Part shown: positions 29,901-47,900 of the stretch, piece after piece
Layout of the letters: every line of letters starts with the position of its first letter
How positions within the stretch are numbered: the first letter of the stretch is position 1
Origin: Myxococcota bacterium
Lineage (GTDB): Bacteria > Myxococcota_A > UBA796 > CAJQPC01
Direction: 5' to 3'
Assembly: GCA_036012755.1 (NCBI GenBank)
Contig: DASCPX010000059.1
Coordinates: 129,870 to 193,869, forward strand
DNA: 64,000 nucleotides
Made by a program: the position numbers

Positions 29901-32900
29901 TCGTCGATCGTCGCCTCGGGCGGGTCGACGAAAAGACGGGCGAGCCGATGGTCGCCCTTTACATCAGCGGTGCCGTCGCGTTGGCCGCCGTCGCCCTCGG
30001 TGACCTCAACGCAGTCGCCGCGGTCGTCTCGATGTTCTTCCTGACGACCTACGGGATGCTGAACCTGGCATCAGCGCTAGAGGCCTGGATTCGCGATCCC
30101 AGCTACCGCCCGCGCATCCGCGTGCCCTTCTGGATCAGCCTGGTGGGTGCGCTCGGTTGCGCCCTGGCCATGGCCCTGATCAGCCCCTTGGCCTTCGTCG
30201 CGGCGGTGCTCATCGAGACCGGGATCTGGTGGTGGCTCAGCCGCCGTCGGCTCCAGGCCACCTGGGGCGATCTGCGGAGCGGCTTCTGGTTCGCGACGGC
30301 CCGGCTCGCGATGGTCCAGCTGCGCACCGCACGCATCGAGCCCCGCAACTGGCGCCCCCACATCCTCGTCTTCACGCCGAACCTGGAGCGCGACGTCGGC
30401 GTCGTGTCCATGGCCGCCCACTTCGGTCAGGACCAGGGCATCGTCTCGGTGTTGACCTTGCACAAGGGCCACCTGGACGACCGGGATGTGCCCAAGCGCA
30501 CCCTCGCTCGGAACCGCGAGCTCCTGGTGGCGGCTGGCGTGATGGCCTTTCCAGAGGTCGTCACCTGCGAGAACAAGGAGCTCGGCCTGCTCTCGGCCTG
30601 CCAGGCCAACGGCTTCGCTGGCATCGAGTCCAACATGGTGTGCTTCCGCTGGCCGTCGAAGCGCGAGCGCCTCGAGCGCATGATCCGCTGGGTCCGCCAC
30701 TTCGACGACCTCGAGAAGAGCACGATGATCATGCGACCGGTGAAGGGGAGCCGGACCAAGGAGGGAGGGGGCGAGGTCCTGGTCTGGTGGAAGGGCAAGG
30801 AGGCCAACGGCGACCTCATGTTGTTGCTGGCCCACCTGCTCGTGATGAGCAAGGCCTGGCGCGGTGCGCGCATCACGCTCGCGAGCGTCGTCGAGTCCGT
30901 CGAGGAGGGAGAGGCGCTCAGCAAGCGCGTGGCCGGGGGTCTGGCAGGGACCAACATCCAGGCCGAGATCGAGGTCGTCGTGCGGCCCGACGACCACTCC
31001 CCCCTGGACTGCATCAGTGAGCGTTCCAGGCAGGCGGACCTCGTCTTCCTGGGTCTCGCGCGCGCCGAGCCAGGGACCGAAGAAGACATCGCCGCTCGGC
31101 TGATCACCCTGGTCGAGGGCATGCCGAGCGTGATCCTGGTCCGCAACTCGGGGCCCTTCCGCGGACGGCTCGTCTAGGCGCAGGGCTTGCCGACATCCAG
31201 CCGAGCGAAGTCCTTGTGGAAACGACGCCACTGGGTCGGGACGAGGTGACGGCCGTCGCTCAGGAGGTGCCAGGGCTCCATCGCCGTGAGGTCCTTTCGC
31301 AGCTCGAGCTTGTCCACCGAGGCGTTCGTGAAGTCCCAGATCGCCGTCGCGAGGCGGTCGAAGCCGTCCGGGCCCTCGCGCAGGCGGCGTGCCTCAGAGG
31401 CCGACAGGGGGTGGGCCTCGAGAGAGGGCCACTCGACCATCGGGCGGATCAGCGCCGGCAAGGCGTGACCCTCGACGGAGAGCTCCAGCGTGCGGACACG
31501 CTCGTCGATGCGGCCCACCAGGGGTGCGATGGACAGGACACCGGTCGGCTCGGGCTCCAGGTGGGCGACCACGTGCCACCAGGCCCGCCAGGCCTCGCGC
31601 TCGAAGGCCAGCATGGCCTCCACCCGTCGCTTCCAGGCGCCGTCGACGAAGGGGAGGACGAACACCAGCGCGTCGCGTCGAGGCGAGCTCGCCGGAGTCC
31701 GGAAGGTGTCCAACAGGCCGCGGGTGCCCGGGGGTGGCAGGAGGTCGACGGCCGGGCGTCCGAGCGCCTCGGTCACGCTCTCGGGAGTCAGGATCATGCG
31801 AGGCAGCATCAGGCCTCCAGGTAGACGAGCACGGCGCGCACGGTGTGGCCGCGAGGCGCGCGCGGGACGAGGGGGACCTGCACCCGCACGATGAGTCCGG
31901 GGGCTGCGGTGGCCGGTGGCGCCCGATCGCCGAGGATGTCCTCGAGGCGCACCGGCGTCGTGAGCACCTTGCGGTTCAGGAACTCCCGCTCGCGCACCCG
32001 GTACAGCGGCACGTGCTCGTAGCCGTAGCCCAGGCGGGACAGGGCGGCGGCGGTCGCCTCTTCGACGGGGACGTCCACCCGCGAGGACTCCGGGACCTCG
32101 TGCGGGAGGGCCTCTACCAGGAACTGGGCGAGTCGGAGCCAGGGCACCACGAAGCGGTTGAAGACCTCGCGGCGCAGGCCGTTGGCCAAGGCCAGGCCGT
32201 CGTCCTGCTGCTTACGCTCGACCGTTGGGGCGAGGCTGGCCCAGGCCCGGTAGCCTCGCGCCGGACGGGCCGAGCGTCGGGAGTAGGCCTTCTCGGCCAG
32301 CACCGCCTGGCACACGTCGTCCAGGGAGCCGGCTCCGAGGTGTCGGGCGCCGATGGCGAAGGCGCTGAGCTCCCGGTAGCCCTCGCGGAAGCCCTCTTCG
32401 AGCTCCTCCCAGCGCTGGTGGTAGTCCCCCTCCGTGAGGGCGCGAAGCCGCTGGGAGGCCTCCAACAGATCGCGCCCTCGACGGAAGAGATCGCCGTGCT
32501 CGGCCATGCCGAGGTCACAGACGGCCCCGCAAGCGCTGCGCAGCTCCGGGTACTCCAGCGCCTGGCCCAGCGCTCCACGCAGGCCGTCGTGCTCCGGGGC
32601 GGTCGGCTTCTCCACCGCGAGCTCCTCGACGCGCTCTGCCTCGGCGGCCTTCTCTGTCTCCAGGGAGGCGACGCGGCCCCCCAGCGCCCGCATCCCTGCG
32701 CGCGCCTGGTCCAGCTCTGCCTGGAGGTCCGAGATCCTGCGCTCCTTCAGCTGCAGGCGACTGCGCAGGGGGCCGGCTTCGTCGACGGTCGGCCTCGCCC
32801 GCTCCCGAATCCGGGCGGCGATGAGCCCGAGCACGATGCCGCCAGCGCCAGCCAGGACGATGAGCAGCCACGACTTCGGAGCTCCCTGTTCGGCCGGCTC

Positions 32901-44900: not shown

Positions 44901-47900
44901 ACGGTCGGCCCGTCGCGCACAGCGGTCCCCCAGGGCAGGATTCCCAGGCTCACCACCAGCGCTCCGAGGAAGAGCGCCAGCCACCACGCGTCGGTCCGCT
45001 GCAAACGGCGCAAAGTAGCAGCCTCCGTTACGGTGCTTGTACGGAGCAGCGCTTCAGTCTCATCGGATCCAGTGACGGATCCACCGCCGCAGCCGATTCG
45101 GGAGGGTACATGGCCACACTTCTGATCATCGCCCAGAAACTCGTAGCGATGTTCGAGGACGCGAAGAGCCTCAAGGAGCTCAGTGAGCGAGAGCGCGAGG
45201 TCTGCGACCTGCTGCTCAAGGGCCTCTCCGCGGTGCAGGTCGGCGAGAGCCTCCACATCAGCCCTCACACGGCGCGCAACCACATGAAGGCCATCTTCCG
45301 GAAGCTGGACGTGGGCACCCAGCTGGAGCTGATCAACCGCTACGCCTGAGCGCTTCGGACTCTGGAGTGTGCCGGCGTCCGGTGGAACTCAGGCGGAAGG
45401 GAAGGGCAGGTCTTAGCTGAGTGCGCCCCCACCGGACGTCGGCGGTACCTGGATCATCGGTGCCGCCGGGTCTGATCTCCATGGCCACATCCAGTCAATC
45501 CGACAGCTGCCTGCGGACGGCGTCGCGGAGCTCTCGCAGTCGGATGGGCTTGGTCGGGTACTCCCGCATGCCCGCCCGCAGCGCGTCCCGCCGGAAGTCG
45601 TCCGTGGCATGGCCCGACAGGTCGAGGATGGCCATCTCCGGGTTCTTGCCGAGGGCTCCAACCTGGAGTCCCGCCAGGATCCGGACGTGCCCCTCTTCGG
45701 TGAACTTGATCGCGTTGGAGATGAGGTTCAGGAGCACCTGGCGCATGCGGGAGCGGTCCCCGCGCAGCAGGGACGGCAGACCGACCTCCGCGAACACGCT
45801 CAGCTCCAGCCCTTTCGCCTCGGCTCGGCTCGCGAAGAGCAACACAGCGCTGTCGAGCAGCTCCTCGACGTCGAAGTCCTCGTTCCTGAGCTCCAGGCGT
45901 CCGGCCTCGATGCGGCTCATGTCGAGCACGTCGGAGAGCAGGAGCTCGGTGCGAGCCTCCGTGCGGAGTGTCGGGTCCTCCTCCGGGATCGCGGCGCGTA
46001 GAGCCTCTACATGGATGGCGACCAGCCCCCCTCCCGTAGTCAGGGACGGCGACATCGCCTCGACCTTCTTCTCGACGGAGAGCAGGTCATCGAGGGCCCT
46101 GTCCACGGCTGGCTCGAAGGGCGCGGTCGTCTGGAGCACGCGCTGGGCGTGCTGGAGCTGTCGGATCAGCTGGATCCGCCGCTCGCGGTCTGCCTGGAGC
46201 TCCCTCGACTCCTGGGCGACCCCGAGGGACCAGAACGCAAAGAGGCAGAGGGCAATGAGCCCACTCGCCCAGCGAAGCCAGAAGCGCATCCGGTCCATGC
46301 GCCCGGAGCATCGCAGGGGTACAGGGGAGCATGATCATCGGACTCGACCACGTCGCCATCTCCACCGACGATCTGGAGGCGGCGCTGCGGCGTCTGCTCG
46401 ACGACTTCGGCCTGGAGCTGGCTGGGCGGGAGGCAGTCCCCAGCGCCGAGACCGAGACGGCCTTCTTTCCCATCTCGGGCACCCGGATCGAGCTGGTCGC
46501 GCCGCTCGAGGCGGCCGGGCCCATAAGGGCTGCCCTCGACAAGCGCGGCCCCGGGCTCCACCACATCTGCTTCGCCACGGACGACCTCGACGCAGACGTC
46601 AAGCGACTCAGGGACAGGGGCTACCGCTTCACCTCGGAGGAGCCGATGCCCGGCGCCCACGGCACGCGGGTCATCTTCGTGCATCCCAGGTCCACCGGCG
46701 GTGTCCTGATCGAGCTGGCCGAGCATCCAACGGAGCGGCGATGAGCCGAGTCCCGGTCGAGGCCCGCGGCGAGACGACCTCGCTGCACGCGCGCAAGGTC
46801 CGCGCCGGCCAGCGCATGCTGATCGGCATCCCGGGGTGTGGTGTCGACGGGGAGACCCGAGCCCTCATCCGACAGCTCCAGCCTGCCGGCTTCATCCTCT
46901 TCTCTCGGAACGTCGAGGAGCCCGCGCAGGTCCGCGAGCTGAACCGCGAGCTGGCGTCGCTCGTCGCCGACGAGTACCCGGCGATCCTCTCCGTCGACCA
47001 GGAGGGCGGTCGGGTCCAGCGGGTGAAGGAGGGCGCCACGCGCTTCCCGCCGCTCCGCCACCTCGGCAACTGCCGGGACCTGGCGCTCACCCGGCGCTAC
47101 GCCGAGGCCCTCGCCGACGAGGTCGCCGCGATGGGCTTCAACCTCAACTGGGCTCCGGTCGCCGACATCGACAGCAACCCCGACAACCCGATCATCGGGG
47201 ATCGCAGCTTCGGGCGCCGTCCCGACGAGGTCGCCCAGCACGTGGCGGCCTACGTGCGTGCGACCCAGGCTCGTGGGGTGCTCGCCTGCGCAAAGCACTT
47301 TCCGGGTCACGGCGACACGGCGACCGACTCCCACCTGACGCTGCCGACCGTCGAGAAGGAGCCACCGGATCTGCGCCACTGCGAGCTCCAGCCCTTCATC
47401 GCTGCGGCGCGGGCCGAGGTCGCCACCATGATGACCGCGCACGTGCTGTTTCCCGGCTTCGACGAGGACAACCCGGCCACGATGAGTCGCCGGATCCTGC
47501 ACGGCGTCCTGCGCGAGGAGCTCGGCTATGGGGGCCTCATCGTCAGCGACGACCTGGAGATGAAGGCCGTGCGTGGGCGCTACGCTCTCGAGGTGCAGCT
47601 GGAGCGGGCCTGCACGGCCACGGTGGACCTCTTCCTCGTCTGCTCCGATCCCCGGCTCCAGGCAGAGGTCTTCGAGGACCTCGTTCGCTTGCAGGAGGAC
47701 GACCCGGCCCAGGACCGCCTGGCGACCGACAGCATGGAGCGCCTGGTGGCGACTCGGAGGCGCTACTTCCTGCGGCGCGCCGAGGCGCCACCGCTGTCGG
47801 TGCTGGACGGCTTCCGCGACCTCATCGGGACCGTCGCTCGGCGAGGTGGCGAGTGATGTGGCTGGTCGGGGCCGCGCTGGCCGCCTCTGATGGTCCGTCC

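Follow-up and report, generated by a model that had tools for sequence, protein, structure and literature searches.

Pairs of a SEDS protein and a class B PBP (bPBP) lie at the core of bacterial wall building and are targets of antibiotics; in the cases studied, they are steered by MreB or by FtsA/FtsZ for growth, division or sporulation. What, then, is the role of an enlarged accessory pair that a myxococcotal genome encodes next to an Hsp70-type ATPase? We addressed this question in a window of 64,000 nucleotides (the whole stretch of DNA analysed) and across related genomes. Our results support an accessory SEDS-bPBP pair outside the dcw cluster that is tied to an Hsp70-fold ATPase, and they suggest a separate wall-building machine that is activated by a signal rather than one serving ordinary growth.

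Two enlarged wall enzymes in a six-gene operon

The operon consists of six minus-strand ORFs (45013-31174) with overlapping stop and start codons and a coding-type GC3 of 0.90-0.91. They encode a SEDS polymerase (G1), a class B PBP (G2), a protein of unassigned fold (G3), an Hsp70-type ATPase (G4), a receptor-like membrane protein (G5) and a putative pseudokinase (G6), whose kinase fold is newly identified here (Table 1). The coupled ORFs, Pfam matches, motifs and folds bear out the six-gene SEDS-bPBP operon of the preliminary description, and the proposed link of an enlarged pair outside dcw to an Hsp70-fold ATPase emerges stronger than it was claimed.

Table 1. Features of the operon and its divergent neighbour, in window positions
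Feature	Position	Strand	Basis
LuxR-type HTH gene, small, divergent; candidate regulator	45110..45349	+	97 bp from G1 start; Pfam GerE E 1.7e-12
G1, 1130-aa SEDS glycosyltransferase	41621..45013	-	Pfam PF01098 (FTSW_RODA_SPOVE) E 4.5e-9, above curated cut-off
G1 extension: split FHA-type sandwich (about residues 37-102 and 353-377), remainder unassigned	43448..44914	-	Structure and profile
Asp967 codon, position of SEDS catalytic Asp	42113..42115	-	HTD motif, here HND/HSD
G2, 1324-aa class B PBP	37650..41624	-	Pfam PF00905 (Transpeptidase) E 7.1e-9, above curated cut-off
G3, 667 aa, fold unassigned, no predicted TM	35650..37653	-	Conserved at this position
G4, 695-aa Hsp70-type (actin-fold) ATPase	33566..35653	-	Profile matches Hsp70/DnaK nucleotide-binding domains, best E 8.9e-11
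G5, 586-aa receptor-like protein	31809..33569	-	Hydropathy, Cys pattern
G6, 211-aa truncated protein-kinase-like fold	31174..31809	-	AF2 pLDDT 87.4

G1 starts at a TTG codon preceded by GGAGG and comprises an N-terminal helix (residues 8-25), a beta-rich extension of ~490 aa (34-522), an extra helix (523-552) and the SEDS core (545-1110). A new AF2 model (pLDDT 84.8, pTM 0.88) reproduced the top fold matches reported earlier: by VIA, FtsW and RodA scored Z 20-22, led by FtsW 8bh1_A (Z 22.0, rmsd 2.9, 327 residues aligned), and the next related fold was the WaaL ligase (Z 9.2, rmsd 5.3). The module scored far under the ftsW, rodA and mrdA cut-offs, G1 falling short of the ortholog-level RodA score (TIGR02210, 21.7 bits vs 336.7), and in a quick tree the SEDS family formed its own branch (SH-aLRT 92). 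The Asp at the catalytic position, which is D297 in E. coli FtsW (PMC8765783, available part), was present in 24/24 family rows, 14/14 distant rows and 15/15 canonical SEDS rows. The DxG, ECL4 Arg and PxxG/SxG motifs were kept in the family without exception, and D967, D846, G848, R926, G1075, S1082 and G1084 of G1 were each invariant (24/24). According to the tables of PMC8765783, a change at W138, Q147, P196 or Y242 inactivates E. coli FtsW. With registers set by motif, the family carries K at the Q147 position in 20/24 rows, G at P196 in 21/24 and R at Y242 in 24/24, while W138 is retained in just 2/24. Because several FtsW-essential residues differ, the G1 family may be slow enzymes or may use a different substrate.

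In G2, a TM segment (12-30) is followed by an insertion of ~570 aa that holds an FHA domain (about residues 118-240), then by pedestal-type motifs (R644-x-Y646, G665-x-E667, D703-x-Q705) and transpeptidase motifs (S792xxK795, S883xN885 and K1129TG at 1129-1131). The SxxK and KTG motifs, previously described as intact, were invariant in all seven aligned PBPs, as was S883; N885 was kept in five and replaced by D in two. The G2 profile matched PBP2/FtsI/SpoVD (best E 1.9e-14) and aligned with FtsI/PBP2 over the end of the pedestal and the transpeptidase, with no match to PF03717 and a score below ortholog level for PBP2 (TIGR03423, 50.1 bits vs 455). Motifs and folds of both enzymes are retained at 23-45% identity. 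Enzyme family and motifs together predict that G1 polymerises lipid II and that G2 cross-links the glycan strands.

The G1 extension had been left without a fold; part of it can now be called FHA-type from structure and sequence matches, and the rest still has no fold. By VIA, FHA entries matched it with Z 6.5-6.7 and rmsd 2.0-3.5 (e.g. 83/91 residues, model range 39..373). Such Z values are middling on their own, and the assignment is carried by sequence: Pfam FHA accounted for 8/8 tested weak matches of the family profile, and it was also matched by the relative P0045 (E 5e-6) and by the G2 ortholog in genome G182 (E 5.9e-6). The phosphothreonine-binding residues of FHA domains are Arg, Ser and His. 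Among 29 SEDS rows, the GR-motif Arg occurred in six and the His in nine, and no Ser was conserved; judged by this alignment, G1 has an FHA-type fold without conserved phosphothreonine-binding residues. In the PBPs, Arg was found in 5/7 and His in 6/7, and the Ser position is G in 6/7. Because FtsW TM1 aligns from residue 549, the G1 extension is placed outside the membrane, and we infer this location for the FHA-type domains of both enzymes. Paired, partly invariant Cys residues occur in the outer parts of G1, G2 and G5.

The ATPase, the receptor-like protein and the kinase fold

The ATPase G4 had been labelled Hsp70/SrfB-like. The Hsp70 part of that label is sustained by the profile matches to nucleotide-binding domains, and the nucleotide motifs DxGTS, ExE/D, DxGxGxTD, GGxD and SGR are kept, with invariant columns in 9/9 rows. 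The best-matching stretches are confined to this domain; the peptide-binding domain of Hsp70 is not matched, and G4 stays below DnaK-level scores (12-13 bits vs cut-offs of 648-1019). The SrfB part finds no support. SrfB is also an Hsp70-fold protein, and its Pfam family PF07520 gave no match to G4 at E<=0.1; a genome-wide SrfB search, run without a positive control, was blank.

G5 is composed of a short hydrophobic N-terminus, a ~220-aa domain with six Cys, a TM segment (about 234-253), a coiled-coil-like stretch and a conserved C-terminal domain of ~230 aa (31809-32501; 12 copies aligned). For this last domain the nearest named Atlas cluster was GrpE (score 0.80, 34% of members), and by hhalign the likeness was not significant (E about 0.4), so that GrpE is a weak lead. 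The outer domains of G5 vary strongly among relatives, additional copies of the G5 domain occur in genomes G036 and G121, and most relatives encode a further receptor-like protein, X, which carries an Hsp70-type domain of its own.

For G6, the best fold match was OspG (4q5h_A; Z 9.4, rmsd 3.2, 135 residues), the VIA list was filled by kinase and phosphotransferase entries, and the top Foldseek rows were PknB/RIO1/PknA (E 1e-3 to 5e-3). With the register set by eye, none of the catalytic Lys, HRD Asp and DFG Asp was conserved at the expected place, and Glu70 at the alphaC position was the sole invariant kinase-type residue checked (17/17). G6 is thus, by its alignment, a pseudokinase. In genome G007 a protein with a G6-like C-terminus lies just upstream of the operon. 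Pfam, NCBIfam and PDB sequence searches returned no match for G3, which has homologs in G011, G121, G036 (via G011), G071, G072 and G183.

Distribution of the module

Eight strong SEDS matches were found among 154 genomes of the order, and 31 family representatives, some of them fragments, at E<=1e-30; the earlier counts of 12 homologs and 2 of 40 order genomes were too low. G4 and the G5 domain occur in the same eight of the 154; since their profiles were built from carriers, what this adds is solely that the other 146 genomes lack them. G6 was found in 8 of 182 genomes of the class, again the same eight, its profile having been built from six carriers and having recovered the remaining two anew. 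The module is all-or-none in this count, which covers SEDS, G4 and G5 across the order and G6 across the class.

Two loci with the SEDS gene alone had been raised as an objection, which falls away, as in both genomes the remaining genes are all present elsewhere. The operon is broken in G071 and G072, with ATPase, G5 and G6 together but apart from SEDS, and G072 retains all genes over four loci. The acidobacterium G182 retains the gene order, which is thus common to two phyla, and the 2425-aa protein P0054 contains both SEDS and PBP pieces. Within genera, presence is patchy: 1/2 other genomes in g1 (the one without the module being only 73% complete), 2/4 in g4 and 1/5 in g17.

Possible function and competing explanations

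To our preferred reading we would give an even chance: a self-contained accessory peptidoglycan synthase, locally switched on by an outside signal, in which an Hsp70-fold ATPase replaces MreB/FtsA. Outside the inner membrane, G1 would polymerise lipid II and G2 would cross-link the strands. Their beta-rich outer domains would stand in for the PBP head domain and for the activators MreC or FtsQLB, the FHA parts being structural docking surfaces, not phosphopeptide readers. On the inner side, G4 would act as a nucleotide-switched scaffold, the role of the actin-fold proteins MreB and FtsA. G5, plus X in most relatives, would sense an outside cue and control which nucleotide state G4 adopts, perhaps through the GrpE-like domain, and G6 and G3 might be adaptors. 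Architecture and distribution suggest triggering by a signal, and the likely outcome would be a wall that is locally patched or reinforced where damage, attack or contact occurs, not growth. A conditional function fits because the spread is patchy, the outer domains of G5 vary and extra G5-domain copies exist. More tentatively, the module could represent a third class of SEDS-bPBP machine besides divisome and elongasome, mobile and receptor-triggered, with Hsp70-fold ATPases and a membrane-anchored GrpE-like exchange factor in place of MreB/FtsA. It would wall off or seal the spot where a phage, a predator or a contact attack strikes, with peptidoglycan building as the defence output.

Like FtsW-FtsI, RodA-PBP2 and SpoVE-SpoVD, the module combines a SEDS fold with its catalytic-position Asp, a neighbouring bPBP that has pedestal-type motifs besides SxxK/SxN/KTG, and an actin-fold ATPase in the gene set. 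In contrast to them, both of its enzymes are two- to threefold larger and have outer domains that contain FHA, and it has an Hsp70-type ATPase, receptor-like protein and pseudokinase instead of MreB/C/D, FtsA and FtsQLB. A portable, all-or-none set of this kind would be a new mode of placing and activating wall synthesis, and it would give the Hsp70 fold a new job and make FHA folds structural parts outside the cell.

We consider it unlikely that the pair is a developmental or morphogenetic synthase, working like SpoVE-SpoVD on a fixed programme to build a special structure (a stalk, a cell-cell junction or the cortex of a resting cell). In its favour, the PBP profile has SpoVD as its second-best PDB match, SEDS-bPBP pairs dedicated to spores exist (PMC12516126, available part), and Caulobacter uses a dedicated complex for the wall of its stalk (PMC6373972, available part). 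Nevertheless, one would expect a body-plan trait to track lineage more closely: the module is patchy within genera, although the g1 genome without it is incomplete, and its receptor-like parts vary strongly.

The changed FtsW-essential positions and the WaaL ligase as next related fold would suit a non-canonical chemistry, in which G1 transfers a lipid-linked glycan that differs from standard lipid II, or the pair fixes some large apparatus for the surface or for secretion in the wall while the Hsp70 half folds or feeds its parts. Pseudokinases, and FHA-type domains that lack phospho-binding residues, likewise occur in type VII secretion machines. A permuted FHA domain is described for EssC (10.64898/2026.10.19.760177, available part). 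We regard this explanation as quite improbable given the invariant Asp, DxG, ECL4 Arg and PxxG/SxG, the intact DD-transpeptidase partner and the loci read, where the module has no recurring neighbour genes for secretion, pilins or glycan synthesis.

The broken operons of G071 and G072 could also mean two co-travelling modules, one for conflict or stress made up of Hsp70, GrpE and pseudokinase, the other a synthase pair independent of it. The GTPase-centred GAP1-N2 conflict systems share with our module an Hsp70 without peptide-binding domain, a possible GrpE, membrane-near receptor-like parts and a patchy spread; unlike them, the module shows no GTPase, GAP1, FNIII or DnaJ, and neither FtsW nor transpeptidase occurs in the available part of the source (PMC7159879). 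One half alone was found in 0/154 genomes, even where the genes are scattered, and gene order is kept across two phyla, which makes two modules a poor prospect.

MreC was not found in this genome, and both mreB genes, one of them 2 kb from a contig end, are without mreC, mrdA or rodA neighbours. The reported loss of RodA-PBP2 stands to this extent, but a second SEDS::PBP fusion lies on contig C16 and a third, very divergent, on C196; FtsW-FtsI is intact within dcw. Across the order, MreC is present in 7/154 genomes, none of them a carrier, and missing from 147/154; 139/154 have neither MreC nor the module, and a RodA::PbpA-type fusion, six times commoner than the module, occurs in 47/154, this genome included. 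Since Rod loss is order-wide, a substitute elongasome, as had been hinted, is very hard to credit, even though no carrier has MreC and G4 has the actin fold of MreB. A large order mostly without MreC thus gathers accessory synthases of several unrelated kinds, of which this genome has three, and the question of wall shaping and repair is therefore testable in such cells.

The actinobacterial cluster has the order fhaA-fhaB-pstP-rodA-pbpA-pknA-pknB. Its SEDS-PBP pair is flanked by kinase and phosphatase (PMC12516126, available part), and like the module it brings an accessory pair together with FHA and kinase-fold proteins. In the module, by contrast, FHA is fused to the enzymes and probably lies outside, the kinase is dead by its alignment, there is no phosphatase, and G3 gave no match to FhaA_N. 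Within this genome, it is the C16 locus that truly corresponds to the actinobacterial cluster. An oversized SEDS with an outward beta-sheet-rich region and an adjoining TPase gene is described for Bosea lupini (PMC12516126, section 18); by that description it resembles G1, with an adjoining non-canonical bPBP additional to normal pairs, and in the available part of the paper the region is interpreted as resembling a pedestal and the PBP as TPase-only. The terms FHA, forkhead, Hsp70 and Myxococc- do not occur in its main text. SrfABC, composed of a SrfA-N pseudokinase, SrfB and SrfC (10.64898/2026.09.18.752743), likewise encodes a non-catalytic kinase-fold domain with a large partner, and the available part of that source mentions no wall synthase; unlike SrfABC, the module has no Pfam SrfB match or SrfC-like GTPase, and G6 stands alone without TM or lipocalin domain. 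Our literature search found no description of this module, large beta-rich SEDS proteins alone having been reported. Next to the operon, the divergent LuxR-type gene starts at an ATG preceded by GGAGGG.

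Enzymatic core and its probable outer domains

The six genes of the operon, G1 to G6, follow one another with overlapping stop and start codons and share a GC3 of 0.90-0.91, and none has a close paralog elsewhere in the genome. The GC content of the operon (0.71-0.73) is a little higher than that of its flanks. A sigma-70 promoter and a terminator were looked for, and neither was found.

Coordinates of the operon genes and their surroundings (window positions) and of other wall-synthesis loci of the same genome (positions in the extracted locus)
Feature	Position	Strand	Size or content
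G1, SEDS	45013-41621	minus	1130 aa
G2, class B PBP	41624-37650	minus	1324 aa
G3, unassigned	37653-35650	minus	667 aa
G4, Hsp70-type ATPase	35653-33566	minus	695 aa
G5, receptor-like	33569-31809	minus	586 aa
G6, pseudokinase	31809-31174	minus	211 aa
SLC12-like transporter	28973-31177	plus	
LuxR HTH gene	45110-45349	plus	
Sensor remnant	45495-46298	minus	267 aa
Sensor block	45495-49211		
Counterpart in relative G011	L025 4079-8887		
Kinase/phosphatase region	48444-52525		
Ser/Thr kinase	49215-50831	minus	
PP2C phosphatase	51575-52525	minus	
mreB	L002 7234-8262		
mreB	L003 7209-8258		
C16 locus	L001 9894-15197	minus	two FHA-type genes, PP2C phosphatase, ~990-aa SEDS::PBP fusion
C196 locus	L005 925-9747	minus	vWA-like TM protein, unknown, FHA-like protein, SEDS-like::transpeptidase fusion, tubulin-like gene

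G1 matches the Pfam FtsW/RodA family above cut-off. Its predicted structure, built from an input of 29 sequences (pLDDT 84.8, pTM 0.88), aligns with FtsW over model residues 549-1110 (Z 22.0, rmsd 2.9, 327 residues); among PDB sequences, neither the G1 profile nor its core region found anything useful. D967 falls in an HTD motif and is invariant in an alignment that includes canonical SEDS proteins, as are D846, G848, R926, G1075, S1082 and G1084. The putative catalytic residue of E. coli FtsW is D297, and changes at W138, Q147, P196 and Y242 inactivate that protein (PMC8765783). At the positions matching these last four, the G1 family is altered throughout. It forms a separate branch of 25 rows in a quick tree (SH-aLRT 92). 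When the G1 core was compared by pairwise BLAST with the SEDS of the C16 locus, the alignment was confined to the C-terminal motif.

The preliminary description had left the N-terminal extension of G1 without a fold. Fold, Pfam and profile evidence now assigns its FHA part, the extension as a whole being only partly covered. FHA structures align over the model range 39..373 (Z 6.7, rmsd 2.0, 83 of 91 residues), relatives match Pfam FHA, and all 8 of the weak profile matches tested, picked from several dozen, are FHA domains. This range points to a single FHA sandwich interrupted by a long insertion. The phosphothreonine-binding residues are not conserved in this region. Additional FHA-like ends in the extension were seen only by eye. 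The alignment of FtsW TM1 starts at residue 549, and two further membrane helices stand on either side of the extension. The extension therefore probably lies outside the membrane, and its conserved cysteines agree with that location. PMC12516126 describes large SEDS proteins, for example in Bosea lupini, whose beta-rich regions point outward; unlike the G1 module, they are linked to neither FHA nor Hsp70 in the available text of that paper.

The transpeptidase motifs of G2 are intact, and its profile aligns with PBP2, FtsI and SpoVD, starting at the pedestal end. Behind the TM segment lies an insertion of ~570 residues that includes an FHA domain, a type matched by Pfam in the ortholog of an acidobacterium, G182 (E 5.9e-6). 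A genome search with PF00905 failed to recover G2, so that divergent members can escape such searches. The G3 profile found nothing useful among PDB sequences; the candidate reading of G3 as a split FhaA was dropped after hhalign against FhaA_N, G1 and G2 came back blank.

ATPase, receptor-like and pseudokinase genes

The nucleotide-binding domain of G4 is of the Hsp70 type, and its motifs do not vary in 9 of 9 rows. The label "SrfB-like", given to it before, found no support: G4 does not match Pfam SrfB, and a whole-genome search with the same family, run without a positive control, was also blank. G5 spans the membrane once; its outer part is rich in cysteine and variable, and the C-terminal domain on the inner side is conserved. 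Its likeness to GrpE is a lead only; hhalign of G5 against 25 GrpE stretches gave no match, and neither did the G5 profile return anything useful from PDB sequences. A complex prediction of G4 (residues 60-695) with the C-terminal domain of G5 scored 0.00, which speaks neither for nor against binding.

The G6 model (pLDDT 87.4) shows a truncated kinase fold. Its top structural match is OspG (Z 9.4), kinases and phosphotransferases fill both fold-search lists, and the catalytic Lys and Asp residues are absent. This likeness appeared by fold search after hhalign had matched G6 to none of 29 kinases of its own genome; the G6 profile found nothing useful among PDB sequences. A dead kinase fold is also reported for SrfA-N (10.64898/2026.09.18.752743).

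In the loci read from six relatives (G011, G036, G071, G072, G182 and G183), a receptor-like gene X of ~1300 aa precedes G4, and G121 carries it in a shorter form. Gene X has a hydrophobic N-terminus and a TM segment, to which the long forms add a second Hsp70-type domain. Copies of the G5 C-terminal domain were also seen around G6, three in G121 and two in G036 (L031 555-6569; L028 2-484), and G121 has a second G4 in pieces on contigs C441 and C256.

Distribution and gene order

The G1 profile matched 10 of 154 genomes of the order, strongly in 8; weak matches in G139 and G143, covering 27-47 profile positions, are excluded from the eight. G4 and the G5 domain each occur in 8 of the 154, and G6 in 8 of 182 genomes of the class. 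All four have the identical eight carriers, belonging to three families, and the distribution is all-or-none. Among high-quality genomes of the order, 4 of 61 carry the module. The genes are also coupled in position: the order SEDS-PBP-G3-(X)-G4-G5-G6 is conserved in the source genome, G011, G036, G121, G007 and G009, with the distant G3 and G5 of G007 and G009 assigned from position and alignment and the SEDS of G121 in two pieces at two contig ends. Two loci had earlier counted against the module as SEDS-only; their genomes, G071 and G072, turn out to have PBP, G3, X, G4, G5 and G6 elsewhere.

One Thermoanaerobaculia genome has all seven genes in the same order, and a second has the first four in order before the contig ends. 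The module is rare. Strong G1 matches occurred in 1 of 401 genomes of the Thermoanaerobaculia phylum, namely the search-centre genome itself, and, in a stricter first look, in 4 of 401 of the source genome's phylum, all within the source genome's order; 33 of 34 and 43 of 47 matches, respectively, were excluded as weak hits to the FHA region or the SEDS tail. A protein library at 50% identity holds 31 G1 representatives at E<=1e-30, below which come more distant FHA-SEDS proteins, 900-1270 aa long. A metagenome scan returned solely a 100% identical record, and a plasmid search with the SEDS-family protein P0045 gave one weak match, an ordinary SEDS.

The module is a real multi-gene system, rare and conserved, whose enzymatic core is known and whose probable control apparatus is undescribed. 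No description of the gene set was found in the literature covered, which comprised few subscription papers and no supplements; members may appear in Tables S8-S10 of PMC12516126 or among the source data of PMC7159879.

Several neighbors were noted on the way. The small LuxR HTH gene is oriented away from the operon start, and the sensor-kinase/receiver remnant next to it matches HATPase and receiver families only partially. At the other end, the gene for an SLC12-like amino-acid permease/cation-chloride cotransporter runs toward G6 and overlaps it by 4 bases. The Ser/Thr kinase and PP2C phosphatase lie 4-7 kb upstream; in most relatives they were not seen next to the module. A block of similar genes (sensor, glyoxalase-like, phosphatase-like) borders the operon upstream here and downstream in G011, by eye as if the operon had been inverted at one site. 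G007 and G009 share genes upstream of the operon (L033 8284-11999, L034 1-625; L038 1-3798, L036 18490-19290), namely a subtilase-LysM protein (in G009), a TM protein, with a G6-like C-terminal domain in G007, and a further small protein. In P0054 (2425 aa), a G1-like extension and membrane region is fused to a G2-like protein; by eye, its SEDS catalytic end and SxxK and KTG motifs look lost.

Possible role and other wall-synthesis loci

That G1 and G2 produce cross-linked peptidoglycan is quite probable. In all known SEDS-bPBP growth machines, the enzymes work together with outer activators and an ATPase of the actin fold. This module comes with an actin-fold ATPase and a receptor-like protein of its own, and the outer domains of its enzymes are enlarged. 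By this parallel, control of G1 and G2 by G4, G5 and G6 is somewhat more likely than not, and the leading reading overall, in which an outside cue triggers local reinforcement, is an even call. That the module represents a third class of SEDS-bPBP machine with a role in defence is a tentative idea that we would sooner doubt than adopt. GTPase-centred conflict systems contain Hsp70 and GrpE (PMC7159879), but as far as that source's available text goes they are without the wall synthases of the present module; defence systems in which receptor-like NTPases sense the periplasm are reported in 10.64898/2026.10.19.760177.

Other readings fare less well than cue-triggered reinforcement. Construction of a developmental structure is unlikely; in Caulobacter a dedicated complex makes the wall of the stalk (PMC6373972). 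Somewhat less likely still is another chemistry, or the anchoring of an apparatus; the G1 family combines altered FtsW positions with the invariant D967. Two modules travelling together would be improbable, the carriers and gene order being those described. Least credible, at a very low probability, is a substitute for the elongasome.

The loss of RodA-PBP2 stated earlier had hinted at such a stand-in. The genome is 96% complete, with FtsW-FtsI in the dcw cluster and two full-length mreB genes without Rod neighbors; MreC was not found in it. MreC was found in only 7 of 154 genomes of the order; its loss therefore predates the module and reaches further. From this, and from two more SEDS::PBP fusions on contigs C16 and C196, it follows that the module is not a substitute. 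The C16 locus, with FhaA_N in one FHA-type gene (E 2e-13), resembles the actinobacterial fhaA-pstP-rodA-pbpA cluster, and its type of fusion is present in 47 of 154 genomes of the order. The very divergent C196 fusion (~1380 aa) retains the Asp in a WGTD motif and has no full-length relative among the 154; Pfam matched its transpeptidase only, and the vWA, FHA and tubulin labels were assigned by eye. The FtsZl1-vWA systems described in PMC2875224, as far as its available text shows, fit this C196 locus better than the six-gene operon.
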